From an uncultured virus (IMG/VR IMGVR_UViG_3300011888_000003) (lineage: Duplodnaviria > Heunggongvirae > Uroviricota > Caudoviricetes): a stretch of DNA of 64,000 nt. The stretch lies in IMG/VR virus record IMGVR_UViG_3300011888_000003, one strand, 5' to 3'. This document shows, piece by piece, positions 1,914-18,384 of this stretch (positions are counted from its first letter, which is position 1; the number at the start of each line of letters is the position of its first letter). The translations under genes were made by a program, and so were the position numbers. A model generated the notes under the pieces. That model had not been told where the DNA came from. It saw nothing but the letters and a program-made list of their open reading frames with translations, and searched no databases.

Positions 1914-1978
1914 TACACCTTGCCTCATCAGACCTACGGAAGGCACCCGTAGATGACGCCCAAATGGACGTTTCGGCT
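1914..1978 (-). ncRNA. type II hammerhead ribozyme
   Basis: GCC-GAAA-CGUCC(auuu)GGGCG-UC^-AUCUACGG(gugccuu)CCGUAGGU-CUGAUGA-GGC; loop I can pair with downstream AAGGUG (pseudoknot); predicted cut between 1955 and 1954. Confidence 0.9.
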
Positions 1979-2294: not shown

Positions 2295-2303
2295 GAGTAC
2301 CTC

Positions 2304-2492: not shown

Positions 2493-2538
2493 GAGAATAC
2501 CTCCTAAAAGGGAGAGGGCAGGGCGACCCTCTCATGTA

Positions 2539-3123: not shown

Positions 3124-3154
3124 ATGAATCTTCCTCTCTAAAATAGATTGATGC

Positions 3155-3184
3155 CCTAAAAAAAGAAGGCCGAAGGCCCTCCGC
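3155..3184 (-). promoter_or_regulatory. GAA-triloop hairpin element
   Basis: CCTA-AAAAAA-GAAGGCC-GAA-GGCCCTCCGC. Confidence 0.55.
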
Positions 3185-3203
3185 CTTTAGGGGTTGACTG
3201 ATG

Positions 3204-3566: not shown

Positions 3567-3599
3567 GATTGATTTCTCCATTCGTATTTAGATTTAGGA

Positions 3600-4130
3600 T
3601 TAGTATTGTAATGAGCTTTGTGGAACGGGATTGTCGAGGTTCTTCTGGACATATTCCTTCCACGGGAAGACGTAACCAGGTTTCTTCTTCCAGATGAGGT
3701 GCTGATAGGAATCGGTCTGTACACCGTCCCATAACCAGAGGATGGCGTCGCTCTCTCGAATCAGGATGAGGTTGCGATTATCGAGGAGCTTCTTCATCGG
3801 CTTATCTTCGTCGCGTTCCTGCATGTAGGTCACTTGCTTGGCATGTTCCAGTTGTTCACGGACATGTACCCAATCGGCGCCTTGCTTCTTACCGAAACCA
3901 GGGAAGGGAAGGATGAGGTGAATCTGCTTCTCATAGCCGTTGTGATAGAGCCACTTCATGGCACGGCAATCCCAATGGTCGGCGCAACCAATCAAGAAGG
4001 TATGCCCTTCTTTTGCTAAGACTTTCAATTGTTTGATTTGCCAATCGAAGATGTCGTCGAGATAAGGACTCTTCCGATTGTAGTAGAGATGATGGGGACG
4101 CATACGCATACCGATGATACCTATCTTCAT
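3600..4130 (-). CDS. SLOG-superfamily (YspA/DUF1273-like) protein
   Basis: MKIGIIGMR..P, FLIGCADHWD, LILPFPG and RNLILIRESDAILWLWDG follow the YspA-like pattern. Confidence 0.65.
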   Translation of the reverse strand: MKIGIIGMRMRPHHLYYNRKSPYLDDIFDWQIKQLKVLAKEGHTFLIGCADHWDCRAMKWLYHNGYEKQIHLILPFPGFGKKQGADWVHVREQLEHAKQVTYMQERDEDKPMKKLLDNRNLILIRESDAILWLWDGVQTDSYQHLIWKKKPGYVFPWKEYVQKNLDNPVPQSSLQY

Positions 4131-4444
4131 GAACCTGCACCTACCTTTTCTTCCCATGAGATAAGAAGATGAGAGGGATGCGTTTGATGGACAGTGAACC
4201 CACGATATGTCAATTGCTCCATGATAGCTTCATCGTAAGCATGAATGTTTGAGAAAAGGAATTCATAGTCAGAGAATGAGACATGATGAGAGTATAAGCC
4301 TCGTGCGGCACGTGGCATGCAATCTGCTATCATTTCTTCGGCGACATTGATGATTCTAGTATTGAGTACGGCGTCTTCATGTTGGTTCTGAAGATTCCGT
4401 TCGTTTGCCATGAAACGAAAGATTTCTGCTTCTGTAGACATCAT
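4127..4444 (-). CDS. hypothetical protein
   Basis: ORF; start placed after the GAATGGAG RBS. Confidence 0.7.
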   Translation of the reverse strand: MMSTEAEIFRFMANERNLQNQHEDAVLNTRIINVAEEMIADCMPRAARGLYSHHVSFSDYEFLFSNIHAYDEAIMEQLTYRGFTVHQTHPSHLLISWEEKVGAGS

Positions 4445-4471
4445 AGGTATCTCTCCATTCATATGAAATTT

Positions 4472-4501
4472 ATCAAGAGAAGAAGGCCGAAGGCCCTCCG
4501 C
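4472..4501 (-). promoter_or_regulatory. GAA-triloop hairpin element
   Basis: ATCA-AGAGAA-GAAGGCC-GAA-GGCCCTCCGC. Confidence 0.6.
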
Positions 4502-4503
4502 TC

Positions 4504-4794
4504 TTAATGTTTAACGACATAGATGACGCGATATGGTGCGACATCCTTGAAGTGGTGGTAGCCGAAATAGCATTGGTAACCGCATGAGTAGAAGAACAAT
4601 GAAAGGGCGAGCTCCTCTGCTGACGTGAGCTCTAGTTTAGTGACGCTTCTCGTGATGCGTGTATCATGTTGGAAGAATAAGGCGTCACGCATGTCACTTA
4701 AGATGTCTTCGATTAAGTCTTGGATGCTTGTGTTGAATTGGTTCAGTAAAGGGATAGAGTTCTCTGGTGTGAGAGAAAGCAATTTTTCGTTCAT
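4504..4794 (-). CDS. hypothetical protein
   Basis: 96-aa ORF with GAACGGAG RBS, flanked by two hairpin elements. Confidence 0.7.
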   Translation of the reverse strand: MNEKLLSLTPENSIPLLNQFNTSIQDLIEDILSDMRDALFFQHDTRITRSVTKLELTSAEELALSLFFYSCGYQCYFGYHHFKDVAPYRVIYVVKH

Positions 4795-4824
4795 AGGTAT
4801 CGCTCCGTTCGTGTTGGATTTAAA

Positions 4825-4854
4825 ATCAAGAAAAGGAGGCCGAAGGCCCTGCGC
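4825..4854 (-). promoter_or_regulatory. GAA-triloop hairpin element
   Basis: ATCA-AGAAAA-GGAGGCC-GAA-GGCCCTGCGC. Confidence 0.6.
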
Positions 4855-4856
4855 TC

Positions 4857-5153
4857 TTAAGATTGAAATTGTGCGTAATACTCTTCTTCCAGGCGTGCGA
4901 GTTCCATTGGGGATAAGACTTCAATATCAGGAAGCAAAGGCGTGAACGGGCAATTGGCGCGATATGCTAAGTGTTTCTCACAAGCCCGTGCCCGTGTGAG
5001 TAGACTGTCGAGTTTCCCACTAGGCCGAAGGCTAACGATGTCTTTATCTTTGGCGACGATTTTATTGACACATCCATTGACGAACAAAGCTTCCTGGACG
5101 AATGCTTCTGCGTAATCTGTTGGATTCTGTAATATCTCTTGATAACCGTACAT
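4857..5153 (-). CDS. hypothetical protein
   Basis: 98-aa ORF with AGGAGG RBS. Confidence 0.7.
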   Translation of the reverse strand: MYGYQEILQNPTDYAEAFVQEALFVNGCVNKIVAKDKDIVSLRPSGKLDSLLTRARACEKHLAYRANCPFTPLLPDIEVLSPMELARLEEEYYAQFQS

Positions 5154-5210
5154 GTTAACTCCTCCTTTTTAGTAGACTGACGAGACCGCTCTTAAGCTGA
5201 AGGCAAGAAG

Positions 5211-5262
5211 AAGGATATGTCCTCTTATCACTTGATATGTCAGCCAGTGGATATGTGTCCAC
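5211..5262 (-). repeat. three tandem GA-CAUA-UC mini-hairpin/palindrome motifs
   Basis: AGGATATGTCCT, TGATATGTCA and GTGGATATGTGTCCAC; related copies near 1023, 1069, 1165, 7017, 7035 and 8011. Confidence 0.55.
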
Positions 5263-5266
5263 TTAT

Positions 5267-5292
5267 AAAAAAAAGAGAGCCCGAAGGCCCTC
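5267..5292 (-). terminator. intrinsic terminator related to the hairpin element
   Basis: Minus strand GAGGGCC-UUC-GGGCUCUC followed by an 8-U run, immediately after a stop codon. Confidence 0.55.
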
Positions 5293-5623
5293 AAGGACGA
5301 TGCTGGTCAAAATGTTCTGCTAGGTCGACAATTTGTCGTTGCTCATGCAAGAGTAAGCGCTCTGTGTCTTCATAGAACTCGAAGATACGAGTGACGGCGT
5401 AATCATAGTCAGCGCCGGTATATCCGACGAGGTCAGCAATCCGTTCCGCCGTATAATACCGAATGTCTTTGCTATGCTCTCCGATGAAGTGGAAGCTAGA
5501 GACTGTAATGAACTCCTTTGTCTCAGGATGGTCCTTGTGGGCATATTGTTCAGTGAAGACCGCATTCATGGCAAGAGCTAGACGATGTGTAATGCCATTG
5601 TTTGAAAGTGGATGTGTCGGCAT
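5291..5623 (-). CDS. hypothetical protein
   Basis: 110-aa ORF with AGGAGG RBS. Confidence 0.7.
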   Translation of the reverse strand: MPTHPLSNNGITHRLALAMNAVFTEQYAHKDHPETKEFITVSSFHFIGEHSKDIRYYTAERIADLVGYTGADYDYAVTRIFEFYEDTERLLLHEQRQIVDLAEHFDQHRP

Positions 5624-5665
5624 GATGTGTCCTCCTTTAAATAAAAAAAGAGAGGCCGGAGCCCC

Positions 5666-5938
5666 TCACTGACTGAACTTAGCGTGCGTAATCATCATGT
5701 TGATATCTTTGCCTTCGAACTGATACGGGATATCGAAACCATAAGGAATCGGGTAGAACGTCGTGCCGTCGACAGAGACTTCATACATGCGTTGTCCTTC
5801 ATTGTTGAAGTGCGTCATGCGAGCTTCCTTGATGCCTTCATACAGGACACCGTCACGATAGATATCCATGTATGCTTTTGTTTCCGTTTCATGATGTAAA
5901 GGTTTGATAGTAGTAGTAGGTTGGATAATAGTGTTCAT
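5666..5938 (-). CDS. hypothetical protein
   Basis: 90-aa ORF, GGAGG RBS, start overlaps the upstream stop. Confidence 0.7.
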   Translation of the reverse strand: MNTIIQPTTTIKPLHHETETKAYMDIYRDGVLYEGIKEARMTHFNNEGQRMYEVSVDGTTFYPIPYGFDIPYQFEGKDINMMITHAKFSQ

Positions 5939-6210
5939 GCTGTTGCCTCCTCTAAAATGTCGAATGAAATGATGCGTTTGCTTTCAATACATGATTCATT
6001 GTATTCCGCGACGGCCTCGTCAAGAGACTTATAGCGTGTATCGACGTTTCCTGCAATTGAACGACGACTGAGGACACGCTTCTCGAAATCGAAGTCGTTG
6101 ATGCATGAGATATTGTTATTAACGAATACCCCCCGTTGTCCGTTTTTAAGCAAAACAGCAACGAGAGGACGGTCGACGATAATACTATAGTGCATATCAA
6201 AGTATCTCAT
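5935..6210 (-). CDS. hypothetical protein
   Basis: 91-aa ORF, translationally coupled to its neighbours. Confidence 0.7.
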   Translation of the reverse strand: MRYFDMHYSIIVDRPLVAVLLKNGQRGVFVNNNISCINDFDFEKRVLSRRSIAGNVDTRYKSLDEAVAEYNESCIESKRIISFDILEEATA

Positions 6211-6386
6211 TACATCGTCCCCGTTTCTTTTAAGATAGCATGCGTGCGAAGACGACTTGCCTTCGCTTGTTCGATGAGGCGTTCGCGTTCTTGACGGTCA
6301 CGTTCCGCAATCGTGATACCTGCGACTACCATAGAGAAGGCGTATAATAACCAAGCTTTACCGATAAATGTTAATGTACGTTTCAT
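6210..6386 (-). CDS. small membrane-anchored protein
   Basis: MKRTLTFIGKAWLLYAFSMVVAG hydrophobic segment; GAATGGAG RBS. Confidence 0.6.
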   Translation of the reverse strand: MKRTLTFIGKAWLLYAFSMVVAGITIAERDRQERERLIEQAKASRLRTHAILKETGTM

Positions 6387-6417
6387 GAGTTTCTCTCCAT
6401 TCGTATAAGGTTTTAGT

Positions 6418-6600
6418 TTAGAAGGTGATATTAACGACAAAGACTAAGATGCTGACAGTACAGAAGAAGATGACGCCCGCGCCGAGCATATCACGTTTCT
6501 CTTTGAAGAAATACATGGTAAAGCCACTCCCTACGACTACGATGAGTAGAAGTAGGAAGTAGAAGAAACAATAGGTCATGAAATCGATTAACGTCCACAT
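6418..6600 (-). CDS. small membrane protein (2 predicted TM segments)
   Basis: Hydrophobic 60-aa ORF with AAGGAG RBS. Confidence 0.65.
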   Translation of the reverse strand: MWTLIDFMTYCFFYFLLLLIVVVGSGFTMYFFKEKRDMLGAGVIFFCTVSILVFVVNITF

Positions 6601-6932
6601 TTGCGACTCTCCTTTAGTTGGCGGTCAGCCACTTTGATTTCATCAGCAAGGGAAGGAGCAGTCGTCATGAGACGATACTCCAATTGAACTTGTGATGCGG
6701 CACAACGTAACAATTCGCGTTCAATCCAGAAGACCTTTTGCTGATAGGCTACTTTGAGCTTTTGCTTGATGGACGCTGAACCGTCACGGTGCTTGATGAT
6801 ATGTGGCGTCTTCGCTTCGAGGATGATGCCCGTACGCACCTGTTTGTGTTCCGGTGCCTGATGCTCCGCTTCATCATAGCGGAAAGGCTTATCCATATTT
6901 GCTTCACGTTCGATTTGTTGATGTACTGACAT
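6588..6932 (-). CDS. hypothetical protein
   Basis: ORF; start placed after the GAATGGAG RBS. Confidence 0.7.
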   Translation of the reverse strand: MSVHQQIEREANMDKPFRYDEAEHQAPEHKQVRTGIILEAKTPHIIKHRDGSASIKQKLKVAYQQKVFWIERELLRCAASQVQLEYRLMTTAPSLADEIKVADRQLKESRKCGR

Positions 6933-6961
6933 TTGAATCGCTCCATTCATATTAGATTATA

Positions 6962-6991
6962 ATCAGACAAAGAAGGCGGAACGCCCTGCGC
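6962..6991 (-). promoter_or_regulatory. GAA-triloop hairpin element (covariant stem)
   Basis: ATCA-GACAAA-GAAGGCG-GAA-CGCCCTGCGC. Confidence 0.6.
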
Positions 6992-7065
6992 CCTTATCTT
7001 TTAAGCCGAAGGCGCTGGATATGTCCGATGCCCTGAATATGTCAATGCATAAAAAAGAAACACGC

Positions 7066-7323
7066 TCATAGACGAATCGAGCGTGCCCCGTTGAATACCA
7101 ATACATGGTCATTGCAGTCGCCACCACAATCACAGTCGTGACCAAGAAGACCTTGTGTATCGAACCCAAGAGCCTGGAACCCTTGAGCAAGCGTCATACG
7201 CCCGTAGACTTTTTTAGCTAAACGATTCGAGAGAACGAACCGGTCTTTCTTCCCAATGCCTAAGTCAGAAAGCAAAGGGCGGATAGTACGTGCCAATGCT
7301 TTACGTGCAGATTTGTTTGTCAT
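7066..7323 (-). CDS. hypothetical protein with HDCDCGGDCNDH Cys/His cluster
   Basis: 85-aa ORF with AAGGAGG RBS. Confidence 0.7.
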   Translation of the reverse strand: MTNKSARKALARTIRPLLSDLGIGKKDRFVLSNRLAKKVYGRMTLAQGFQALGFDTQGLLGHDCDCGGDCNDHVLVFNGARSIRL

Positions 7324-7373
7324 GAGTAAGCCTCCTTGAATGTGTATGTAAATAAAAAAGAAAGACGCCCCGA

Positions 7374-7745
7374 TTAAAACGGGACGTCGTAAGAACCACG
7401 TTCATTATTTAAATCAGCCCCACGAAGGTGGGATTTCAAACGCATTGCGTCAATCCCCTCAAGAACAGGGAAAGAAGAATCGCCTGGGTCAACAGGCGTG
7501 AAACGAGCGCAAGATGCCAAGATATCGTATGTTGCGTCAATAGCTTGTGTCTGCGGTACGTCCCATGCATCAGCAGGATTCAGTAATTCCGCCATGTATT
7601 GCAGATAATAAGGCGTATTGCCCATTTCCTCTGCATGGAAGACGAAACTGTGTACGAAGACGCAATCCTCAGAGATAGCGCCGCGCTTGAGCAATTTGTT
7701 CATAGATAGAGCAAGACCGTGTAACATCTCAGTATTAGGTAACAT
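7374..7745 (-). CDS. hypothetical protein, C-terminus YDVPF
   Basis: ORF downstream of a hairpin element; exact start uncertain. Confidence 0.65.
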   Translation of the reverse strand: MLPNTEMLHGLALSMNKLLKRGAISEDCVFVHSFVFHAEEMGNTPYYLQYMAELLNPADAWDVPQTQAIDATYDILASCARFTPVDPGDSSFPVLEGIDAMRLKSHLRGADLNNERGSYDVPF

Positions 7746-7770
7746 TAGAACCATTCCCTTCGATATTAGA

Positions 7771-7799
7771 TTCACGTACAGGTGGCCAAGGGCCCTATG
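7771..7799 (-). promoter_or_regulatory. hairpin element variant (AAG loop)
   Basis: TTCA-CGTACA-GGTGGCC-AAG-GGCCCTATG. Confidence 0.45.
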
Positions 7800-8186
7800 A
7801 AGTTGTGTGTAACATTAAGTATTTGCTATGTGCCGGAGGTTGGGTAAGCCTCCGCGCTACATAACACCTACTATCTATGACCGGCACACCCCTGTGCGTC
7901 GCATAGAATACGAATCCCCTATCCGGTAGGACAGAAAGGAGACCTGATGTCGTGTTCCTACCAAGTAGGAATTACGACCGTCTTTTCACCAACCCCCATC
8001 AGGGTAAAGTTGGATATGTCCAAAGACGGAAGTGCTCATGCTCTGATGACGCAATCCCCCTACTGGACAGTAGGAAGAAAGCGAGAGCCTTCACCGATAC
8101 TCTGGTGCAATTCAATGAGGTGTGAAGGCTCTATCCCGAAGGAACAAGAGAGCGTCTGGGTGGAATTAGATTCCCCTCATTGAATC
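7800..8186 (-). ncRNA. putative large structured ncRNA (about 385 nt) with a 5' pseudoknot
   Basis: Two crossing perfect 11-bp helices (8175-8185/8110-8120 and 8122-8132/8084-8094) plus several more helices; no credible minus-strand CDS; begins at the predicted start site of a hairpin element. Confidence 0.7.
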
Positions 8187-8286
8187 AAAAGCAGAAGGCC
8201 GAAGGCCCTATGCTCTTTTGGTACTGATTCGCCTCCTCCAAGAAGAAGGAGACGATATCACAAACAGGTGGCGGAACGCCCTGCGC
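8184..8286 (-). promoter_or_regulatory. two GAA-triloop hairpin elements upstream of the ncRNA
   Basis: ATCA-AAAGCA-GAAGGCC-GAA-GGCCCTATGC (8184-8213) and ATCA-CAAACA-GGTGGCG-GAA-CGCCCTGCGC (8257-8286). Confidence 0.6.
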
Positions 8287-8294
8287 CCTTGCCC

Positions 8295-8531
8295 TTAAAA
8301 CGGTAAGCCGTTGTCTTCTGCTAAGACGAGAGGCTTACGCTTCAACTGTGCCGCAATGCGACGGTCATCGGCCTCGAACGCCAATCGTACCCGTGCCTCG
8401 GAAATCTCACGACGACGGTCGCTGTACATTCCCTGAAGCTGATGGGTCGACTGCTCCTCATACCAATGACAGGGATACGGTAGTACCAGTTTCAATTGTT
8501 GAATCAGTGTAGTGCGTGACATATTCGTCAC
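8295..8531 (-). CDS. hypothetical protein, C-terminus DNGLPF
   Basis: 78-aa ORF with AAGGAG RBS; GTG start or the downstream ATG. Confidence 0.65.
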   Translation of the reverse strand: MTNMSRTTLIQQLKLVLPYPCHWYEEQSTHQLQGMYSDRRREISEARVRLAFEADDRRIAAQLKRKPLVLAEDNGLPF

Positions 8532-8549
8532 TCCTTCCTATGTGTTTAT

Positions 8550-8579
8550 TTCCAACGAAGCGGGCGGAACGCCCTACGC
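8550..8579 (-). promoter_or_regulatory. GAA-triloop hairpin element
   Basis: TTCC-AACGAA-GCGGGCG-GAA-CGCCCTACGC. Confidence 0.5.
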
Positions 8580-8647
8580 TCTTGCAGTGTGAGAAACAAT
8601 AGCCGAAGGCCCACCTTAGATAGGCAGGCCGTTCGACAAAGCGTGGC

Positions 8648-9991
8648 TCAGTTTGTAACACCTGCACGCTGTTTAGCTGTAATCTCTGTCATGTTGACAG
8701 GATTGTAGTCATGAGAAGCAGGGAACTGTTTCTGCACGACTTCTTGCCCGATACGACGAGTAGCAAGTAATGACCATGGGCAGATGTTGACTTGTGCACC
8801 ACGGAGTTTCTTGTACAGACGTGTAGCGACATCTTCTTTGCCATGTGGCATGAAGCGGATGACGTTGTCAGCGCCTTGTACAGCGGCTTTGCGAAGCTCA
8901 TAAGCATTACCATTGACCTCGATGATAGCGTCAGCCATCGAGCGAATAGCAGAGCTCATACGAGCAGGAGAGAAGATGTTACGCGCCTTCTCTTCTTCGA
9001 GCGTATCGCAATACTTTTGGAAGTGCTGTTTGTTCGTGAAAAGAATCAATTTGACATTAGGATGCACCTTCTTGATTTCTTTCCAAACAAACGGAATCGC
9101 AAACACTTCTAAGCCATTGAACTCTCCGACATGGAACGTATCCACCCCACGTTGAATCATACCAAGCATCGTCATGTGAAGCGCATGTGCAACCTCTTTC
9201 ATGAAGACGCCTGTCTGATGATGGTGTGAGAGACGACCGCTGTTGAAGACCGAGCTGAGCTCAGTAGGTGCGGCGATGACGGCTACATTGTTCGCTTTAG
9301 CGACTGTGACAGGTTTAGAGACCTGTTTCACTTCCTCCTTCACCTCCACTGGAGTGTCTTGTTTGACGGGCTCCTTGACTTCTTCCTTGACTGATGCGAC
9401 CTCTTCTTTGATGACAGGATTCTTTGCATAAGAAGCAATCAAATCATCCATTGACTCTTCGCTTGAAGCACCAGGGATTTTGACTTTGTCGAGGATAGAC
9501 AACGGCTTCTTCTCAACGACAGGTGTTTCGACAGGTGCTTGTTTGCTAAGCTCTTGTGAAAGAGCGTTCACAGCACCAGCATCTTGCATGTCTTGCATGT
9601 TTGACTCAACATCTTCGTTGCGTTCTTCTTTCTCGATGACTTCATCTTCGTCTTCATCGTCTTCGTCTAACTCATCGTAGAAGTTTTTGACTTCCATCGT
9701 TTTCATAGACTCTTTGAGCTCATCGATGACGACTTTGTTGCGAGCTTCTTGCGAAAGCTCAGCTTCTTCTTCTGAATCAGCGTCCGACATGTCTTCTTCC
9801 ATCTGTGCAAAAGCAGACAAGTTCTCTGCTTCTTCGTTGACTTCAACTTCAGTGACTTCGACTTCAGTGACAGTAGTGACGACAGATTGTGCTTTGAACG
9901 TTTCAAACATCTCGTTCAACTTAGCAGTTGTTTCATTCACGAGGTTTACTTGTGCTTGCATCATTTCGATAGTTACTGTTACGTTTGTCAT
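8648..9991 (-). CDS. acidic low-complexity N-terminus fused to a divergent SLOG/YspA-like domain
   Basis: E/D-rich first half; C-terminal RGVDTFHVGEFNGLEVFA...IKKVHPNVKLILF...ADAIIEV resembles DUF1273. Confidence 0.55.
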   Translation of the reverse strand: MTNVTVTIEMMQAQVNLVNETTAKLNEMFETFKAQSVVTTVTEVEVTEVEVNEEAENLSAFAQMEEDMSDADSEEEAELSQEARNKVVIDELKESMKTMEVKNFYDELDEDDEDEDEVIEKEERNEDVESNMQDMQDAGAVNALSQELSKQAPVETPVVEKKPLSILDKVKIPGASSEESMDDLIASYAKNPVIKEEVASVKEEVKEPVKQDTPVEVKEEVKQVSKPVTVAKANNVAVIAAPTELSSVFNSGRLSHHHQTGVFMKEVAHALHMTMLGMIQRGVDTFHVGEFNGLEVFAIPFVWKEIKKVHPNVKLILFTNKQHFQKYCDTLEEEKARNIFSPARMSSAIRSMADAIIEVNGNAYELRKAAVQGADNVIRFMPHGKEDVATRLYKKLRGAQVNICPWSLLATRRIGQEVVQKQFPASHDYNPVNMTEITAKQRAGVTN

Positions 9992-10068
9992 GTTAATTTT
10001 CCCCTTTCAAAGGAAAGAGCCCCTACTTTGTAGGAGCCCTTGAGAGTATTTGTATTACTTATCGGGTA

Positions 10069-11910
10069 TTACTTGCAGAACATTGTTGTTCCATCACATG
10101 AGAAGACATCTACGTCTTCAACCATCTCATCAGATGTCATGAGAAGGTAACGGTTACCATCGTTAAGGAGGTATCCGTTCGTGCCACCATCTTCGACGAG
10201 GAATTCGAATTCAAGACCAAGGATGACATCTGCACCGTGATGAGCGACGAGTTCACGACCATCTTGGTTGAGCTCGAATGCATAGAACTGTTGTGATGCG
10301 ACAGCCTCCATGACTTCTTCCTCTTGACGTGCCTCTTCGAGCGTTGAAGAAGCAATTGCTTCTCCGTTGAGCAAGAAGTCTTTCAACTTGATAGAAACAC
10401 CATCTTTACCAATCTGTGTTTCGTTGTACTCTTGGATGACAGCCGTATAGAACATATCATCAGAGACAAGTGGGAACGTCGAAGCAGATTTCGCATCGAT
10501 TTTGACTGGGAAGAATCCAGCTTCGAACAAGAGACCCATCGCATCTCCTTGACGAACGATTTGAACGATGTCGCCTACTCCATGCTTCTTCACTTGTTTC
10601 TTCGTGAAGAGTTCAGCAAGTCCTTCCGCACGTGCTGTAGCTGAATCGTGCGTGAAGAAGACGAACTGTGCTTCCGTTGGAGCATGGTAAACGAACGGTG
10701 TATCACTTTCGTTTGCAAGCTCCATGAGTGCCATCTTGATGCCTTTCATGAAGACGTCCCAAAGAATCGAGAAGTTCTTTGAGTCTTTCGCACCATCGTA
10801 TTGTTTGATATACGTGGCAATCGTGATTTTGAGCAATGCGTTCTCTTCGCCATGAGACTGAGCGAATTCGACGAGACCTGCTTGTTTGTGCCCTTCGATA
10901 GCTTTCGCATAGTCCTCATTTGCGAGACCGAGCACATACTTGTCGTGGTCCGTCATCGTTTTGTTGAGGAGAGATTTCTTGTCTCCTGTTGACATGTAGT
11001 CCGCAGTCCACATCTCAAGACCAGTCGACCAAGCATAGCGGTCTTCTTCACGCATACCGCTTTTGATGAACGCCTCAGAGTTCATGAGGTTGCGTTCACC
11101 GAGTGCTTTGATGGCTTTCTTTTCGAACCCTTTGCGGAGTTCGTCAATCTTCTTGAACTCAGAGATAGCTTTTGAAATCCAAGAAGAGCCAATAACTGCG
11201 CCATCTTTCATTTCTTCTTCTGTCATACCAAGCTTCTCTTTGACAGTCGTCATTTCCTCGATGAGGTTTTGGTGAATACCGAAAGCGGCAGAGCTGAATC
11301 CAGCAATCTTGTAGACTTGACGTGCGAAGTCTGCTGATGCTTGGACAGAAGAGTTACGATGCGTAACATTAATACCTGACGTCATTTTCTGACGAGCCAA
11401 GTATTCTGGTTTAGCTTGTGATACTTTCAACTCTGTATCCATGATGCTTTCTTTCTCTTTGATGATAGCGACTTTCGCCTCTACATCAGCAAGAACGTTA
11501 CGGATTTTCCGTGACTGTTGAATTTCAACAATCAACGTTGAAGATACGAACGGGCCGAGTGTCACTGAGTACGTGTACTCGACCTTCTTCTTATCGACTG
11601 TCAATCCTTCCCACATGACGATAAGAGTGATGTCTTCTTTGACGACTGTTAAGCCTTTGTTGAACGGCTCCTCAATCAATTCATAGAACGCTTGAAGCTC
11701 TTTCTCTGACGATGCGTGAAGCATGACGAAGTCTGGACCGAACTTCGCCTTGAGTGAAGCGACAGCACGCTTCACGAGGATTGCGTCGACATCAGTCAAC
11801 TCAGATGCGTTGACTTGGAAGCTATCGACGGCAAATGCTTTGCCCATGATAGCTGTGAGCTTCTCCTCCGTTGTTAATTCTTTCTTCTTACTGTTTGTTT
11901 GTTCTGACAT
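10069..11910 (-). CDS. hypothetical 613-aa protein next to the RNA polymerase gene (possible accessory subunit)
   Basis: Long ORF with AAAGGAG RBS; function inferred from position only. Confidence 0.75.
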   Translation of the reverse strand: MSEQTNSKKKELTTEEKLTAIMGKAFAVDSFQVNASELTDVDAILVKRAVASLKAKFGPDFVMLHASSEKELQAFYELIEEPFNKGLTVVKEDITLIVMWEGLTVDKKKVEYTYSVTLGPFVSSTLIVEIQQSRKIRNVLADVEAKVAIIKEKESIMDTELKVSQAKPEYLARQKMTSGINVTHRNSSVQASADFARQVYKIAGFSSAAFGIHQNLIEEMTTVKEKLGMTEEEMKDGAVIGSSWISKAISEFKKIDELRKGFEKKAIKALGERNLMNSEAFIKSGMREEDRYAWSTGLEMWTADYMSTGDKKSLLNKTMTDHDKYVLGLANEDYAKAIEGHKQAGLVEFAQSHGEENALLKITIATYIKQYDGAKDSKNFSILWDVFMKGIKMALMELANESDTPFVYHAPTEAQFVFFTHDSATARAEGLAELFTKKQVKKHGVGDIVQIVRQGDAMGLLFEAGFFPVKIDAKSASTFPLVSDDMFYTAVIQEYNETQIGKDGVSIKLKDFLLNGEAIASSTLEEARQEEEVMEAVASQQFYAFELNQDGRELVAHHGADVILGLEFEFLVEDGGTNGYLLNDGNRYLLMTSDEMVEDVDVFSCDGTTMFCK

Positions 11911-11919
11911 AGTCGAGAA

Positions 11920-11957
11920 CTCCTTTCGTACCTCATCCAGTTTCTCTGGCTTGTTGG
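11920..11957 (-). promoter_or_regulatory. conserved 5'-leader motif, copy 1
   Basis: CCAACAAG-CCAG(agaaa)CUGG-AUGAGG-uacg-AAAGGAG. Confidence 0.6.
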
Positions 11958-11962
11958 CAATG

Positions 11963-12031
11963 CGACCTATCTCATCAGTATGGGGCTGGTCAATACCCCA
12001 CAGAGCCCCTCCGAAGAGGGACTTTCGAAAA
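11963..12031 (-). ncRNA. type II hammerhead ribozyme
   Basis: UUC-GAAA-GUCCCUC(uucg)GAGGGGC-UC^-UGUGGGG(uauugaccag)CCCCAUA-CUGAUGA-GA; loop UGACC can pair with downstream GGUCG; predicted cut between 12003 and 12002; stem II is short. Confidence 0.85.
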
Positions 12032-12050
12032 GTCCTTCCGAAGAAGGACC
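12027..12050 (-). terminator. hairpin/terminator directly after the RNAP gene
   Basis: GGUCCUUC-UUCG-GAAGGACU-UUUC. Confidence 0.55.
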
Positions 12051-12056
12051 AAGAGA

Positions 12057-14876
12057 TTAAACGAATAGACGTACAGGGAAGAAGTGCTCTGATTTTGCAT
12101 GATACAAGAGCTCTTCTGGTGTTGGGTTTGTTTCAAACACATCGACGATGTGGCTGAGTGGCTCATCAAATGCTCCACCGTGTTTCGCCTCATCAATCGC
12201 CCAACGGACGATACATACCAACCAGTTAGCGATGTCTTCATAGTTACCGTACTCAACAGCAAGCAGGTAACGTTGGTGCGTCATTTCGAGCTTTTCTTGT
12301 GCATTCTCAGAGACAGCGATATCCTCTGAAAGCACGATGATGTCACGTTGGATATCAAGTAAGATATCTTCAACGTTCATCAAGCGGTTCGTCCACTTAC
12401 CGATAGACGAGACTTTCGCTGTCGCAACGATGTGAGCCGCCGCCATACGGTTGAAGACGTAGTACACGAGCTTCGCACGTTCTTCGTCGAGAACGTCTGC
12501 TTTATCGAACTTCAGTGTCCACGTGCGTGAACCGTTGACAACTTCTTGTTCGACGTTAAGCTTGTTGGCTTCGATGAAATCACCAACAAGAGCAAAGACG
12601 TCTGGTGCTTCTTCAGGACGCGCCCATGGGCAACCTCCTTCAACTTCTCCGTTTTCATCTTTGAAGAAGTCGAGCATTTTAACTTTATTTTTGAAGCTGT
12701 TGACAACATACTGGTTGAAGATAACCAAGCAAGTGTCACCGTCAAAGTCAGCGCCAGACATCGCTTCTGTCGTCATATCGACAGAGTTGAACAAGACCAA
12801 CCCTTTGAAGAATCCAGCTTTCGCCGCTTCGACGTAATAGCGCATTGCTTCTTCGTTCGCAAGCGTATCAACAGCGAGAACTTTACGGACTTCCTCTTTC
12901 TTGAGGATTGGGTAACGGACAGCGAGGAAGTAACCACGACGCAAGTTCCCTTTGCTGTCGACGACAATCGCACAACCAGCAGGGATAGAATCAACGTACT
13001 TGACGACTGGTTCTTTCCCATCGAACAGTTCATCGACAACTCCTTGGATGGCTTTCACGACCATGAAGATATCGAAGCCCATGTGACGCATTTTAGCGTC
13101 CTTGACCAAGATGCCACCTTTCTTGATTTTCTCAAGTGGCTTCGTTAACAAGTTTTGAACTTTACGTTTGACTGCCATATCCTTGATGATTTCAGGATTC
13201 GTTGAGAGCAAATTCTTGATGTCGATTAAGACATCATCCATCATGACATTCTTGTCGATTTCTTCTTCTTCGACCTCGACTTCCACTTCTTCTGCGTCTG
13301 CATCTTCATCAGCAGAAGTATCGCCTTTCTCCATCTTGTCGTAGTAGTCTGACTCGACGTTGAGGAGTTTGAGTGCCATCTTGCCGTCAAACGGTGCAGA
13401 CTTGACGTAAGATGCTGTGAACATGTTGAGAAGCTTCATGTTCTTTTGTGGGACGTCCATCGCGAGCAATGCTTGCGTTGCGACGAGTGCCATATCCTCT
13501 TCCTCTTCCATCCGTGATGCTTGGACGATAGAGAGTTTGAACGACCCATCAAGAAGCGATGGGAGAAGGTCGAGCTTCATTGCTCCATCCATGAAGACCA
13601 TGTCCGCTCCAGTCATCTGACGGAGTTTGTACGTGCCGTAAGCGAACGGCTTAAGACCATTCGCACCACGAGCTTGTACGGACTGGCCTTCGTCTTTCAT
13701 GTTGCCTTCCTGTTTGAGGTAGTAAGCTACCTCTTCAGAGAAGAGGATACCGCCATCCGTCATGTTCTTGACGAATTCGATATCTTCTTCGATGAGTTTC
13801 GGCATTTCAGCGCGTTGAACGATGACTGCACGTTCTGTTACCGTACGCATCATATCACCAATCAAGATGATACGACGTTTCCGGCCGTTGAGCATTTTGT
13901 GCTTAGACTGCAACACAGTGACGTGTTCTTTCTTGCCAACACCATTCGTGTAGTCACCCTCACGGATGATTTCCATCTCACCGAACAATGCTTCCATTAC
14001 CGTTGAAAAGCGTGACCCTGAAGCCGCCATATCCAGACGTTTCGGGTCCTTATCGATTTTGAACTTCCACTTGCCATCTTGCTCTCCACCGTAGACAGAG
14101 AGTTCGAATGACGCATTGAACCGGCTGTATACAGCAGTGACACGAAGATTGTGGTCTTTAAGCTTCTGCTCAAGAGTCGGACGGTTCGCGCGAGCAAACT
14201 CATAGAATGCCGCTTCCCCTTTCCGAGTTTGGGCTGGTGACGCCGAATTTGGCGTATAGAGAATCAATTCTTGCCCGTTGTGAAGTGCAATACCATTCAA
14301 AATGAATTTTTGAACGATTTTGGCAAGTTCGAGCAATGACATCTTGAAGAGCTTCGCGTACTGCTTTGTGAGCATGAACGCGAGTTCTTCAACGACTGGC
14401 ACAACACGGAAGTTGAGTTGCTTCGTGTTGTCGAACGCTTTAACGACAGACGTTTCAATGACTTTGCGGTCATTGTTTTGACGCGTGTACATTTCGAAAT
14501 CGTTGAACTCACACAAGTCACGGACAAGATGGTTTTCCGAGTTGCGTTGAACGAGCGTGTTCGAAAGTAAACGAGAAGTCTTAACATCAACGAGTGAATG
14601 CATAACGCCCGCTTCATCTTTTTCGAATCCACGGATGTAGATGAACGGCGTTACGTTATCACGTAATACGTATCCATCTCCTTTAAGCGTCAACATTTTA
14701 CGAAGAGCCGCGACACGTTGTGCTTTCTCTCCTTCAATTAAGACTGTCTCGCCGTTAACGATAAATGCCAGCACATATTCGCGTGCTGACAAGTTGAATG
14801 ATGGTGCCTTTGGTCCGTGATGACGAACCTTAATCTCTGCGTTTACTGCCTTTTTGAAACTGTTTGATACTGCCAT
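12057..14876 (-). CDS. YonO-like / cellular-RdRP-like single-subunit two-barrel RNA polymerase (939 aa)
   Basis: Ordered motifs SPAQTRKG, TDGGILFSEE, SVQARG..GLKP, AVRYP, MSGADFDGD (12735-12749), IGKWTN and AIDEAKHG. Confidence 0.88.
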   Translation of the reverse strand: MAVSNSFKKAVNAEIKVRHHGPKAPSFNLSAREYVLAFIVNGETVLIEGEKAQRVAALRKMLTLKGDGYVLRDNVTPFIYIRGFEKDEAGVMHSLVDVKTSRLLSNTLVQRNSENHLVRDLCEFNDFEMYTRQNNDRKVIETSVVKAFDNTKQLNFRVVPVVEELAFMLTKQYAKLFKMSLLELAKIVQKFILNGIALHNGQELILYTPNSASPAQTRKGEAAFYEFARANRPTLEQKLKDHNLRVTAVYSRFNASFELSVYGGEQDGKWKFKIDKDPKRLDMAASGSRFSTVMEALFGEMEIIREGDYTNGVGKKEHVTVLQSKHKMLNGRKRRIILIGDMMRTVTERAVIVQRAEMPKLIEEDIEFVKNMTDGGILFSEEVAYYLKQEGNMKDEGQSVQARGANGLKPFAYGTYKLRQMTGADMVFMDGAMKLDLLPSLLDGSFKLSIVQASRMEEEEDMALVATQALLAMDVPQKNMKLLNMFTASYVKSAPFDGKMALKLLNVESDYYDKMEKGDTSADEDADAEEVEVEVEEEEIDKNVMMDDVLIDIKNLLSTNPEIIKDMAVKRKVQNLLTKPLEKIKKGGILVKDAKMRHMGFDIFMVVKAIQGVVDELFDGKEPVVKYVDSIPAGCAIVVDSKGNLRRGYFLAVRYPILKKEEVRKVLAVDTLANEEAMRYYVEAAKAGFFKGLVLFNSVDMTTEAMSGADFDGDTCLVIFNQYVVNSFKNKVKMLDFFKDENGEVEGGCPWARPEEAPDVFALVGDFIEANKLNVEQEVVNGSRTWTLKFDKADVLDEERAKLVYYVFNRMAAAHIVATAKVSSIGKWTNRLMNVEDILLDIQRDIIVLSEDIAVSENAQEKLEMTHQRYLLAVEYGNYEDIANWLVCIVRWAIDEAKHGGAFDEPLSHIVDVFETNPTPEELLYHAKSEHFFPVRLFV

Positions 14877-15001
14877 TCTAAATTACCCCTTTGCGTCAAG
14901 TGCGCCCACGATGTCGTAGTTTAAGGTCCTCGCCAAGACCACTTCTTCTATATGAAAAGCCCTCTTATACGAATGGGTACAAGAGAGCTTTATAAATAGA
15001 A

Positions 15002-15037
15002 GAATCCCCCTCAAGAAGAGAGGGATTTCTTTTTTTA
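15002..15037. terminator. possibly bidirectional terminator hairpin
   Basis: GAATCCCCCTC-AAGAA-GAGAGGGATTTC followed by a T-run. Confidence 0.45.
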
Positions 15038-15352
15038 GAAGATTGGCGCTTGTTCTGCCAATTTCTTAACTTTTACTGTGCGTGTTCGGAGTTTGTATGC
15101 AAGATTTTTCTCCCACGTGCAGAATTGATTTTCTAGGATTTCCGCACATTCATCTGCCATCCATTGACGGATTCTATCCTCTTGAAGAAGTGACATTGGT
15201 GTTACTTCGATAAGAAGAGTTAACAAATCCTCTGCTTCTTTGATTGTTGAATCACCATCAAGAAGCTGACCTGTGATTTCATGAAGCTTAGCAGAGAATG
15301 CTGGTTGACGAAGTACATAAGTGTGGAGTTCTGAAAAAGTGAAGTTTGACAT
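15035..15352 (-). CDS. hypothetical protein
   Basis: 105-aa ORF with AAAGGGG RBS. Confidence 0.7.
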   Translation of the reverse strand: MSNFTFSELHTYVLRQPAFSAKLHEITGQLLDGDSTIKEAEDLLTLLIEVTPMSLLQEDRIRQWMADECAEILENQFCTWEKNLAYKLRTRTVKVKKLAEQAPIF

Positions 15353-15360
15353 TGGGATTT

Positions 15361-15398
15361 TCCCCTTTCGCCCTCATCCGGTTTCTCCGGCTTATTGG
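15361..15398 (-). promoter_or_regulatory. conserved 5'-leader motif, copy 2
   Basis: CCAAUAAG-CCGG(agaaa)CCGG-AUGAGG-gcg-AAAGGGG. Confidence 0.6.
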
Positions 15399-15520
15399 AT
15401 GTTCTTATCTGGTAAGACCTCCCTATTGAAGCAATAGAGAAGCCTTATACAAATAAGAACCCCCTATATAGACCCCCCTTTATAGAGGGGCCTTATATAG
15501 AGGGCCTTTATATGGACCCC

Positions 15521-16096
15521 TTAATAGAGGACCATCTTTACAGGACAGCCCGAATACAGGCTGTTTAACGCAAACATGCAGTTATTTCGACCGTTCTCCT
15601 TGCACAAGATATACGTCATGATGCCTTGTGCCCGTGCCTGATTAATATCCATTTCTTTTACATTCAAGCCCATATGCTGTGCCATATGGTAAATCAACCG
15701 TGAGTTAGCATACACAGTTTTATATCCTTGCTCCTTGATGTGCTCTAAGAACTCGACTAACTGTGGGTGCACCTTAACGTACATGTCGTGTACATATTCC
15801 TTATTGTTCATGCTAATATCAAACGACAAGAAGGCCCCTTCTGCATGAGGCTTCTGAGGACCAGTGCCCTCCACCATGCGCTTGACGATTGCATGGTGCA
15901 TCTTATTGTTTAAGATGAATGCCTTGATTTCACTATAAGATACTTGGCATAGATGGCTTTTCTTACCCATGAGACGTGCCGCATCAGCCGCTCTACCCTT
16001 CTTAGCGAACGCATATACAGGGAAGGTTAAACCTTCAATTAGCGTTGGTAATACGAACTGAGTAGTAGTAGCAGTAGTAGTAGTGTTGTTTGTCAT
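15521..16096 (-). CDS. hypothetical protein with Thr-rich N-terminus
   Basis: ORF; start MTNNTTT placed after the AAAGGAG RBS. Confidence 0.75.
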   Translation of the reverse strand: MTNNTTTTATTTQFVLPTLIEGLTFPVYAFAKKGRAADAARLMGKKSHLCQVSYSEIKAFILNNKMHHAIVKRMVEGTGPQKPHAEGAFLSFDISMNNKEYVHDMYVKVHPQLVEFLEHIKEQGYKTVYANSRLIYHMAQHMGLNVKEMDINQARAQGIMTYILCKENGRNNCMFALNSLYSGCPVKMVLY

Positions 16097-16105
16097 GATA
16101 GTAAT

Positions 16106-16141
16106 CTCCTTTGTCCTCATCCAGTATCCCTGGCTTATTGG
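16106..16141 (-). promoter_or_regulatory. conserved 5'-leader motif, copy 3
   Basis: CCAAUAAG-CCAG(ggaua)CUGG-AUGAGG-ac-AAAGGAG. Confidence 0.6.
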
Positions 16142-16181
16142 TATACATATAGGCCCCCATATAGAGGGCCATATATATGAA

Positions 16182-16661
16182 TCAATAGAATTCAGTAGCT
16201 AGTGCAAGGTGCATGTTATACCACTCCACTGCACTAGGGATTTGTTGCATGTACCGCGCCATGCAACCTTTGATATAGTCTTGATACTTAGGATTATATA
16301 AATCCTTAGTCAAGCCACCGTGCAATTCAATCACCAATACTGGTACATCGAAACGTACCATGGCATTAGCAATACGGATGCTAACACCAAAGTCTCCTGA
16401 TGTAGCACCACTACCACATACAGTAGTCTGTGGTGTTACATTGTCGTTCATTTTCTTATCACGCTTATTGTTAGCCGTGATATCCAATCTGACCATGGTA
16501 TCCACACCATTGTGCATACCTGTGAACAGGACAATATCTGTGCCTTGTTCCTTGTCCATCTTGCTTCCTTTCGGAGTCTGGACACAATCGTATCCATACT
16601 CCTGCATTGCCTCGAAGAACATATCTTCAAGGATTTGACCTGCCTGCTTTACCTCTTCCAC
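16182..16661 (-). CDS. PD-(D/E)XK-like nuclease-fold protein
   Basis: GQILEDMF...MDKEQGTDIVL...RLDIT pattern. Confidence 0.45.
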   Translation of the reverse strand: MEEVKQAGQILEDMFFEAMQEYGYDCVQTPKGSKMDKEQGTDIVLFTGMHNGVDTMVRLDITANNKRDKKMNDNVTPQTTVCGSGATSGDFGVSIRIANAMVRFDVPVLVIELHGGLTKDLYNPKYQDYIKGCMARYMQQIPSAVEWYNMHLALATEFY

Positions 16662-17156
16662 TTGGAAGTCATCCTTTCTGGTATATGATTAGGGGGTGGG
16701 CGTCGAAAGATTCTCCGCACATACACCTATACCATTACCATGCCGCTGAGAATTTTGAAGCATTTCTCCCCTATAAAGGTTTTTCTCGACCATCGTCCCG
16801 CTCTTCTTCTCATTCGGGTCAAATCTCTTGCTCCTCTCTCTCCCCCTGCCACTACCAGCACCGCCCCCCTTCAAAAAGAGACCCCCACCCTTTATCTCTT
16901 TTTTGCAAATTCTCAAAAATAAAATAATAAAAAATTACCCATTCTCTAGAAAAATGAGAACAAAACACCCTAAAAGGGGAACATATGTACGTATTATGAA
17001 AGGGAAGAACCCTTAATCTGCAAATGCTTTCATGAATATGTGTGATAATGCGTCAATCAGGAAAAGAACTATTGGTGTTTGTGTAATAAAGCTGATAGGA
17101 TAAGGATAAAGATATCCAGATACAGCCATCTTAAGACTTGTAAAGGAGTGAAGGTG

Positions 17157-17336
17157 ATGGGAATGCACATCAAGTTGGAAGTCTCAGGAGAGCGTCGGTG
17201 CATGTCGTGTGACGCGCATATACGGGACAATCATCGCTTTTATCTATTGAAGGATACCAAACATCATGTCGTGCTGTGCGGGCGCTGTAGTGAAGCGTTA
17301 GAGAGCAAGATGAAGAAGCAAGAGGTGGTGAAGTAA
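17157..17336 (+). CDS. small zinc-finger protein
   Basis: CMSC...CGRC; start placed after AAGGAGTGAAGGTG. Confidence 0.65.
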   Translation: MGMHIKLEVSGERRCMSCDAHIRDNHRFYLLKDTKHHVVLCGRCSEALESKMKKQEVVK

Positions 17337-17623
17337 TGGAAACCTTGCTTGATAACGCAATTGATATGCGATATCAAAAGAATCCAGAGGGGACGGACGG
17401 GGTCCTCGTCTATATCAGCCGAATCGATGTCGGCGGGATGATTCGCGATTTGAATGAACTATTCTTTAATTATGAACACGTACATTATGAGTTTTTCGAT
17501 ATTGAGATGGTCGGATGGAGAAAGCATAAGGCAGAGGGTCATGTCTATTTTATTTATTATATTGAGTTCCAGCGTATGCGATATACGAAGCAAAAACGAA
17601 GAGAATTGAGCAAGACGTCCTGA
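17336..17623 (+). CDS. hypothetical protein
   Basis: 95-aa ORF coupled to the upstream gene. Confidence 0.65.
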   Translation: METLLDNAIDMRYQKNPEGTDGVLVYISRIDVGGMIRDLNELFFNYEHVHYEFFDIEMVGWRKHKAEGHVYFIYYIEFQRMRYTKQKRRELSKTS

Positions 17624-17814
17624 TGCATCCTGTATTGATAGCATTATCGTTCATATGGTTCGTCAGCACCTATTATTGTTATGAAAAGACCCTGGATTTA
17701 GTGCGAATGGAGACATCATTCGCTGTATTCGTCAGTTTCATCCATACATGGCTGGTTTGGGCGGGAATCAGCTGTTGTTTTTATCTTTATCTCAATTACG
17801 TATTCATTACATAG
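17623..17814 (+). CDS. small membrane protein
   Basis: Two hydrophobic stretches; coupled start. Confidence 0.6.
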   Translation: MHPVLIALSFIWFVSTYYCYEKTLDLVRMETSFAVFVSFIHTWLVWAGISCCFYLYLNYVFIT

Positions 17815-17823
17815 GGGGATACT

Positions 17824-17985
17824 ATGAATGTCATCATCGGGGCGATTGTCTTAGGGGTATTGCTGTATGTGTTCTTCTATATCCTAGGGAATGCCATAGA
17901 GGATAGCTTCTATGCAATATATGTCGCGTACTTATTTGTTCTCGGAATCTTTATTATCTATACGGTGGACTTCATCTTCCTGTAG
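17824..17985 (+). CDS. small membrane protein (53 aa, below the ORF-track cutoff)
   Basis: Translated by hand: MNVIIGAIVLGVLLYVFF...VDFIFL*; GGGGGA RBS. Confidence 0.6.
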   Translation: MNVIIGAIVLGVLLYVFFYILGNAIEDSFYAIYVAYLFVLGIFIIYTVDFIFL

Positions 17986-18384
17986 GGAAGCATATAAAAA
18001 GTAGACGGTCGGCCGCACATACTATTGTATGGGGAGGCATCAGCCTCCTGTATCCTTATCTTCTAACTCTATAGGGGGGAAGACTATAAGGAGATAATAG
18101 AGAGAGACCTTATAAAGAAAGTATCAGCACTTCATACAAGAGGATAGTAACCAAGCGAAGCATCAGGCATCTAACCCGACGTTTCGCTTTTTTGCTGTAC
18201 CGTGTGCTACTTGAAATCTTCAAGGCAAATGGTTACATTTCCGGTAATCCTTATATGCCTCCACACGCTTTTAGGGCAAAGGTTGGTTAGAAGGTCTGGA
18301 AAAATGCAAATGATTAACTGGTGCCGACAGCCTCGTGTGTTGTTGCGCTCTAAATAAGTCAGGAAAAGAAAGAGGGAAAGACGT

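Follow-up and report, generated by a model that had tools for sequence, protein, structure and literature searches.

The question raised by this locus is what becomes of an RNA transcribed across two neighbouring phage genes. In a 64,000-nucleotide stretch of DNA from an uncultured virus (IMG/VR record IMGVR_UViG_3300011888_000003; hereafter the window, in whose numbering all coordinates are given), an open reading frame (ORF) of 939 amino acids (aa) at 14876..12057, encoding an RNA polymerase (RNAP)-like protein, is followed by a 613-aa ORF at 11910..10069; both genes lie on the minus strand and are separated by a spacer of 146 nt. A model-generated annotation (the original prediction) had placed a hammerhead ribozyme in this spacer. 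A complete type II hammerhead can indeed be read there on the minus strand, at 12030..11961, and the evidence presented here leads us to consider it probably a functional, self-cleaving ribozyme.

Read 5' to 3' on the minus strand, the element and the hairpin that precedes it (T1) are made up of the parts listed here. Position labels (C3, G12, 15.1, 17 etc.) follow the standard hammerhead convention; the descriptor and the covariance model R2 are described below.

12031..12050, minus strand: hairpin T1, GGUCCUUC-UUCG-GAAGGACU, 8 bp, directly 5' of stem II (from the sequence; pair probabilities 0.81-0.99)
12027..12030, minus strand: UUUC, 5' strand of stem II (C11.1 = 12027, U11.2 = 12028, U11.3 = 12029; from the sequence)
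12023..12026, minus strand: core G12 A13 A14 A15.1 (GAAA; from the sequence, the descriptor, and the Rfam and R2 alignments)
12004..12023, minus strand: stem III, 8 bp, i.e. A15.1-U16.1 (A12023-U12004) plus 7 bp (12022-12016 with 12005-12011), UUCG loop
12002..12003, minus strand: C17 (12003) and the predicted scissile bond 12003/12002 (from its place in the core alignments)
11979..12002, minus strand: stem I, UGUGGGG/CCCCAUA, 7 bp (12002-11996 with 11979-11985), loop UAUUGACCAG of 8-10 nt
11972..11978, minus strand: core C3-A9, CUGAUGA (from the sequence, the descriptor, and the Rfam and R2 alignments)
11968..11971, minus strand: GAUA, 3' strand of stem II and linker A (G10.1 = 11971, A10.2 = 11970; from the sequence)
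11963..11967, minus strand: 3' tail GGUCG, pseudoknot partner of the loop-I segment UGACC (11992-11988; from complementarity)

All the positions of the type II core are present (C3 U4 G5 A6 N7 G8 A9, G12 A13 A14, A15.1-U16.1 and H17), and the pairs adjacent to the core are all Watson-Crick (U12002-A11979, G11971-C12027, A12023-U12004); none of the positions at which the acceptance rule of Perreault et al. (2011; PMC3088659) admits no mispair (1.1-2.1, 10.1-11.1 and 15.1-16.1) is mispaired. The topology is that of type II, with stems I and III closed by loops and an open stem II made from the 5' and 3' ends of the element. Stem III extends from its outermost pair, A12023-U12004, through C12016-G12011, stem I can take an optional eighth pair (U11995.G11986), and stem II consists of 2 bp (G11971-C12027 and A11970-U12028) with U.U at the third position. 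The pseudoknot UGACC/GGUCG comprises four Watson-Crick pairs and one wobble, the fifth pair U.G, with a duplex energy of -6.9 kcal/mol, and so reaches the length of at least 4 bp with which a loop-I/tail pseudoknot is reported to be common in type II hammerheads (PMC3088659).

The original prediction thus described the element accurately. Each part of the core that it listed (GAAA, the cleavage-site C and CUGAUGA) was found on the minus strand where it had been placed; its 7-bp stems correspond to stem I, to which the U.G pair may be added, and to the 7 bp of stem III beyond A15.1-U16.1. The loop-I/3'-tail pseudoknot and the short stem II, borrowing the U-run that follows the upstream hairpin, were likewise recovered, and the core alignments agree with cleavage between 12003 and 12002, as far as its position is concerned.

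Such a motif might also arise by accident, if tandem UUCG hairpins of a terminator type common in this genome happened to be flanked by GAAA and CUGAUGA. The window offers some ground for this suspicion, considering that the sequence of stem III is a near-copy of T1, that UUCG hairpins recur 12 times, and that GAAA falls within a palindrome, GGACUUUUCGAAAGUCC. A descriptor composed of GAAA, a hairpin, U-H, a second hairpin and CUGANGA, with exact junctions, was run on both strands of the window and gave four matches. Two of these, both on the minus strand, were strong, namely the studied element (stems of 8 and 8 bp) and a site at 1974..1925 (6 and 9 bp); the two weak ones had 4-bp stems (one with a 7-bp stem I) and a non-consensus N7, and lay inside coding sequence of the plus strand. 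Matches whose stem III reached 6 bp and whose stem I reached 7 bp numbered two in the window and none in 300 dinucleotide-preserving shuffles, while at the looser setting of 5/5 bp the shuffles gave a mean of 0.077 matches each. Folding with ViennaRNA placed T1, stem III and stem I in both the minimum-free-energy and the centroid structure, with pair probabilities of 0.78-0.999.

Further evidence came from hammerheads on other viral contigs. The record nearest to the window, a 26-kb fragment in IMG/VR (G001), has 97.6% identity to it across the 4.9 kb aligned and differs at a single base in the 146-nt spacer, where A replaces G12001 and a stem I pair changes from G.U to A-U. A narrow pattern derived from the studied element found, besides the copy in G001, one unrelated contig (L017), on which a stop codon is followed by AUC-GAAA, an 8-bp UUCG-capped stem III, UC, stem I and CUGAUGA-GAUA, with a tail GCUGA complementary to the UCAGC of its own loop I. 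A wider pattern, CGAAA..TCT..ACTGATGAGATA, fixes only CGAAA, UCU and ACUGAUGAGAUA, leaving the stems and the pseudoknot unspecified; GAUA belonged to the scan pattern and therefore defines the retrieved set. This pattern returned 124 IMG/VR loci, corresponding to an estimated ~150 stretches in the whole collection. Contiguous stems III and I, both of at least 4 bp, were present in 114 of the 131 matches, and the remaining 17, inspected by eye, comprised about six bulged hammerheads and about eleven accidents in coding sequence.

After removal of duplicates and of the G001 copy, 103 distinct hammerheads were left; they represent a subfamily of the design CUGAUGA-GAU-A-pseudoknot, widespread among phage genomes. 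A loop-I/tail pseudoknot (sought within the 8 nt starting at the A of GAUA), in the register seen in the studied element, reached at least 4 bp in 98/103, compared with 45% for mismatched loop/tail pairs, and at least 5 bp in 78/103, compared with 22%. The triplet preceding GAAA was AUC in 58 members, UUC in 21, GUC in 16, AAC in five and another in three; the U.U position of stem II is therefore a common natural variant, as the 21 members with a UUC strand share it. Individual members come close to the studied element: L064, L112, L122 and L017 have the same tail design and pseudoknot register, the pseudoknot letters UGACC/GGUCA of L064, L065, L112 and L122 match its own, and the loop I of L064 is nearly identical, while L017 shares the GAAAG start and the UUCG-capped 8-bp stem III. 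The studied element differs from the subfamily in its fifth pseudoknot pair, U.G, and in the extra elements that flank it on both sides, T1 and a conserved leader motif.

The subfamily also has a typical placement. Among the 97 members flanked on both sides by 200 nt or more, an upstream ORF stops within 18 nt of C11.1, mostly at 1-4 nt, in 75 cases (9/485 control positions), and a downstream ORF starts within 70 nt of A9, mostly at 20-35 nt, in 76 (130/485 controls); both features are present in 58/97. The members of the subfamily are intercistronic elements. In the window both distances are longer: because of the inserted T1, 29 nt separate the end of the stop codon from C11.1 (usually 1-4 nt), and because of the inserted leader motif, the start codon follows A9 at 61 nt (usually 20-35 nt). 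As a separate observation, a pistol ribozyme (L032 5-77, plus strand, 68.2 bits) and a type-P5 twister (L036 692-749, minus strand, 44.6 bits) lie within a few hundred bases of subfamily hammerheads on unrelated viral contigs, and two to five hammerheads occur close together on L029, L085, L090 and L116.

A first covariance model, R1, was built from the studied element and its G001 copy and run unfiltered on 94 loci, i.e. L017 and 93 of the 124 with a descriptor match, evident duplicates and the G001 copy having been left out. Full-length matches at E<=0.01 numbered 96, and from these foreign viral hammerheads only, with no copy of the studied element, the second model, R2, was built. In the alignment of the 96 sequences the three helices are 97.9% paired (63.6% when shuffled), 15 of the 17 pairs have changed on both sides, and covariation amounts to 0.706, against 0.143 for shuffled alignments, a value reached in 0/500 shuffles and to be compared with at most 0.12 in slid controls. 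R2 recognizes the studied element over its full length with 74.8 bits (E about 6e-14, on a rough calibration), and the next-best unrelated place in the window obtains 13.9 bits. Together with the absence of the motif from all 300 shuffles, with junctions that are exact to the nucleotide and with a tail and pseudoknot register identical to those of the subfamily, this score makes a chance look-alike extremely improbable.

Several results weigh against reading the element as a genuine, self-cleaving hammerhead. The Rfam Hammerhead_II model (RF02276), to which the original prediction had looked for a check, does match the element, with 25.3 bits and E 0.0013 in a search of a 102-nt piece, but at a score below the gathering threshold of 37 bits; it gave no match at this site in searches of 601 nt or of the whole 64-kb window. 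Scaled to the whole window the E value would be ~1, so Rfam alone would not carry the finding. The energy of the pseudoknot was equalled in 75 of 2000 composition-preserving shuffles, which makes the pseudoknot, taken alone, weak evidence. R2 is not fully independent of the studied element either, its members having been retrieved by a pattern from that element and aligned by a model of it, and for this reason the alignment and the R2 score lean towards the element; the stems, pseudoknots and Rfam matches of the members are independent of both steps. At the locus itself there is no specific covariation, since the only homologous copy is 97.6% identical and carries a single structure-preserving change. 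In addition, the hammerhead is absent from the same spacer in L006/G002 and in L014, whose RNAP-like proteins are 42-45% identical to that of the window and which have only a terminator and the leader motif there; at the RNAP/613-aa locus it is therefore specific to a narrow lineage. Finally, closing stem II costs +2.5 kcal/mol in the nearest-neighbour model, with only two pairs before U.U. Nearest-neighbour models usually do not favour the short stem II of hammerheads.

These points could be accommodated by a decayed or crippled hammerhead, in which U.U and the competing T1 leave little or no activity and the hairpins do no more than structure the 3' end of the RNAP-like mRNA. Such a copy would explain a marginal stem II and the lowest Rfam score among the hammerheads examined (25.3 bits, compared with 31-50), and the absence of the element from the 42-45% relatives indicates that it is dispensable at the locus. 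However, a crippling defect would hardly be expected to recur, as the same UUC/GAU stem II does, in 21 independent members, every core and core-adjacent position is preserved, and the one substitution relative to G001 concerns a stem I pair that is stronger as A-U. Moreover, stem II is reported to be often of 2 bp, a 1-bp example to cleave fast, and a U10.1-U11.1 mismatch to be tolerated even at the first stem II pair (PMC3088659), and these active ribozymes with a stem II of 1-2 bp also speak for function. We regard a crippled copy as unlikely, and an active ribozyme as the much better reading.

The low Rfam score can be placed in the context of the subfamily. When 20 subfamily loci were searched with RF02276, 17 were matched, 13 of them at 37 bits or more and four at 31.3-35.3 bits, while L032, L034 and L056, all UUC variants, gave no match at E<=10. 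Recognition of 17/20 loci puts the subfamily within the known Rfam family, part of which the model under-scores. The studied element has in common with the RF02276 hammerheads the full core, hairpin-closed stems I and III, an open stem II of 2 bp, the pseudoknot between loop I and the nucleotides immediately 3' of stem II, and the intergenic phage setting; it differs from them in scoring below the cut-off, in a G for the usual C at 15.2, in U.U at the third stem II position and in the UUCG hairpin that abuts stem II.

The second strong descriptor match proved to be a further hammerhead.

1914..1978, minus strand: second type II hammerhead (RF02276 33.3 bits at 1918-1978; R2 43.4 bits)

Upstream of it stand two tandem UUCG terminators, the nearer of which ends ~27 nt away, and a 196-aa ORF follows at ~60 nt. 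In G002 it is kept (L015 1501-1564, RF02276 31.4 bits) ahead of a homologous gene (39% identity), with a terminator ending ~10 nt before it and another following it, and its pseudoknot covaries, from CCUU/AAGG to CCCU/AGGG. In G001, the RF02276 search found the second hammerhead and not the copy of the studied element. The HH1-only model missed the second hammerhead with default filters and matched weakly with filters off (16.7 and 10.4 bits); MAFFT misaligned the four hammerheads of this phage group, and that alignment was not used. Like the studied element, the second hammerhead and its G002 homologue are of type II with a pseudoknot, belong to the same strand and gene block, and follow UUCG terminators and precede a gene. 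In contrast to it, the second hammerhead has a stem II of 3 bp and, in place of GAUA, the tail GGCA, and it is kept across ~40% protein divergence, which the studied element is not.

Hairpin T1 stands immediately in front of the ribozyme. Its arms (12050-12043 with 12038-12031) enclose a UUCG loop, and its 3' end lies exactly 3 nt before C11.1, a spacing also seen for upstream hairpins in L064, L088 and L091. Where the original prediction had seen a terminator-like UUCG hairpin after the RNAP stop codon, the hairpin is real, but its character as a terminator is not borne out: with terminators defined as a GC-rich hairpin and, immediately after it, a U-tract (5 or more U in 8), the tail of T1, UUUCGAAAG, has UUU and then C, and T1 is missing from a terminator scan that lists 38 other sites in 1-18000. 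Stem III repeats T1 closely, with C-G in place of U-A as a compensatory change, which suggests that the two share an origin; the R1 model also matches the counterpart of T1 in the near-identical record G001 (L001 2052-2069). An extended stem II invading T1 was considered as the main fold and rejected, at -27.5 kcal/mol compared with -34.2 kcal/mol for T1 together with the hammerhead stems.

Two further observations concern these hairpins. The palindrome GGACUUUUCGAAAGUCC (12019-12035, minus strand), which includes GAAA, connects T1 (3' arm) with stem III (5' arm) and could form a third hairpin excluding both; as T1 and stem III each have the greater stability, this hairpin is predicted with low probability. 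The UUCG (GGCCUUCGGCC) terminator hairpins form a 41-nt repeat family of 12 copies between 1199 and 20250 (e.g. 1992-2032, 2048-2088, 4823-4863), with conserved flanks, located downstream of many small genes of the minus strand; in 1-18000, terminator-like sites exceed expectation (38 observed, 14.2 expected).

On its 3' side, the ribozyme is followed by the leader motif, and the pair is framed by the two genes.

12057..14876, minus strand: 939-aa ORF, candidate two-barrel (YonO/RdRP-like) RNA polymerase, upstream of the ribozyme, stop codon TAA at 12059-12057
11926..11957, minus strand: conserved leader motif, CCAAYAAGCC(R)G-loop-C(Y)GGAUGAGG, ~10 nt before the Shine-Dalgarno sequence (SD) of the 613-aa gene
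10069..11910, minus strand: 613-aa ORF, downstream of the ribozyme, ATG at 11910 after an SD, neighbour of the RNAP-like gene in relatives

The conserved leader that the original prediction had noticed downstream of the ribozyme is borne out as a repeat family, D9, with three copies in the window (11926-11957, 15367-15398 and 16110-16141, minus strand), each ~10 nt before the SD of a gene around the RNAP-like gene; it is also present in the relatives L006 (about 5783-5812) and L014 (about 5097-5126), and compensatory changes are seen in its hairpin. A phage promoter or start signal is one possible role of the motif, a protein-binding site in the 5' untranslated region another.

The 939-aa protein (phrog_8308) matches the Pfam family PF05183 (RNA-dependent RNA polymerase, RdRP) with E 1.2e-4 and 21.4 bits, below the cut-off of 23.8, and a search of PDB sequences with the RNAP alignment gave no match. 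Since PF05183 was matched at E<=0.01 in seven of nine homologues, albeit below threshold in the protein itself, and a GADFDGD stretch is invariant among them, the protein can be considered a candidate two-barrel polymerase of the YonO type. It has nine relatives in a collection of 5.8 billion proteins (P0002 with 92% and P0003 with 60% identity), one of them on a 237-kb contig. DNA and protein searches of GenBank phages gave no match, and RNAP scans found full-length viral relatives in G001 and G002 only, a full-length metagenomic one in L014 and an N-terminal fragment in L013, and none in bacterial and archaeal genomes. The 613-aa protein belongs to no Pfam or PHROG family and had no usable match in the Atlas; a viral scan with it retrieved the G001 record only. 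A homologue follows the RNAP-like gene wherever the DNA was read (G001, L006 and L014; 28% identity in L006), and it is possibly a partner of the polymerase.

Most likely, a transcript shared by the RNAP-like and 613-aa genes would be cut in two after C12003, where we infer both the co-transcription and the cleavage. Intergenic cutting of such co-transcripts fits the placement of the subfamily between stop and start codons. In the mechanism that we propose, transcription of the RNAP-like gene would run past T1, and stems III and I would fold as local hairpins; the tail GGUCG would pair with loop I, bringing stems I and II side by side, and the 2-bp stem II, possibly stacked on T1, would close the core. 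Self-cleavage 3' of C12003 would give an upstream mRNA in which two UUCG hairpins precede a terminal 2',3'-cyclic phosphate; the downstream mRNA would carry a 5'-OH ahead of the stem I hairpin, and after this would come the leader motif, then the SD and the 613-aa ORF. Ends of these kinds generally slow exonucleolytic and 5'-end-dependent decay, and cleavage may affect mRNA stability or translation.

The same arrangement might instead serve ribozyme-assisted formation of a 3' end, with T1 as a weak stop signal for whichever polymerase transcribes this block and the hammerhead severing the read-through RNA, so that downstream transcription is uncoupled or aborted; the 613-aa gene would start from the leader motif, and giving its mRNA a 5' end would not be what the cut is for. 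T1 without a proper U-tract would suit this role, as would the leader motif, whose constant spacing from the SD in front of three genes is what one would expect of a promoter or start signal; hammerheads of this phage group lie near UUCG hairpins or terminators (T1, the two terminators ~27 nt before the second hammerhead, and G002), and YonO-type polymerases are described as lacking the flap used in hairpin-dependent termination (PMC5467207). A terminator combined with a hammerhead was tried as a general module of the subfamily and rejected, stable upstream hairpins (-12 kcal/mol or lower) being no commoner among the members (6/102) than in controls (7/102); most members, moreover, stand directly between stop codon and SD, which fits plain intercistronic processing. 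We consider 3'-end formation a rather improbable role for the element. A bolder version would make T1 and the hammerhead a composite termination and 3'-end module, in which T1 stacks on a three-position stem II and pre-organizes it, the ribozyme severs RNA left unterminated by the flap-less polymerase, and the 613-aa gene restarts from the leader motif. This proposal is speculative, and we give it little credence; were it true, the element would be a ribozyme-based termination module rather than a plain intercistronic processing site. Cutting of the shared transcript between its two genes is thus the reading that we prefer.

This reading agrees with what has been reported for other phage-associated hammerheads. 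Those flanking prophage genes cut polycistronic RNAs in vitro (PMC3088659), and in D. vulgaris cleavage in vivo is reported for three type II hammerheads close to phage-derived genes (PMC8782182). The hammerheads of prophage operons in A. tumefaciens, A. caulinodans and C. scindens and the HHphage hammerheads of the haloviruses HF1 and HF2 are described as cutting inside polycistronic transcripts, near the downstream start codon, in vitro and, for some, in vivo (PMC3088659), whereas the studied element is a predicted ribozyme of an uncultured myovirus-like phage that has no relative in GenBank. In their 2019 review, Weinberg, Weinberg and Hammann note that a processing of polycistronic transcripts has been suggested, with its purpose not yet defined (PMC6765202).

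Elsewhere in the window, two group I introns lie on the plus strand (23380-23963, 88.4 bits, and 25280-25626, 57.6 bits) in the region of an ORF, 21692-23422, with weak large-terminase matches, and an HNH/endonuclease ORF, 24509-25387 (phrog_4645, E 4e-60), is located between them. A structural gene block at 29143-41502 (plus strand) includes a portal (phrog_9232, E 1e-63), a major head protein (phrog_3922) and a tail sheath (phrog_16991), and for this reason the virus can be taken as a contractile-tailed phage. The CheckV completeness of G001, 11% at 26 kb, hints at a genome of ~200 kb or more.

The studied element is genuine yet ordinary, belonging to a group of ribozymes common in phage genomes. 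Default Rfam annotation would miss it, and seven of the 20 subfamily loci searched are below the cut-off or undetected. The ~150 IMG/VR stretches, most of them with a hammerhead, provide a clean data set for a question described as open in reviews, the role of intercistronic ribozymes in phages (PMC6765202). As for the RNAP-like gene and its 613-aa neighbour, their mRNAs are probably separated after transcription, which may allow each an independent stability or translation.

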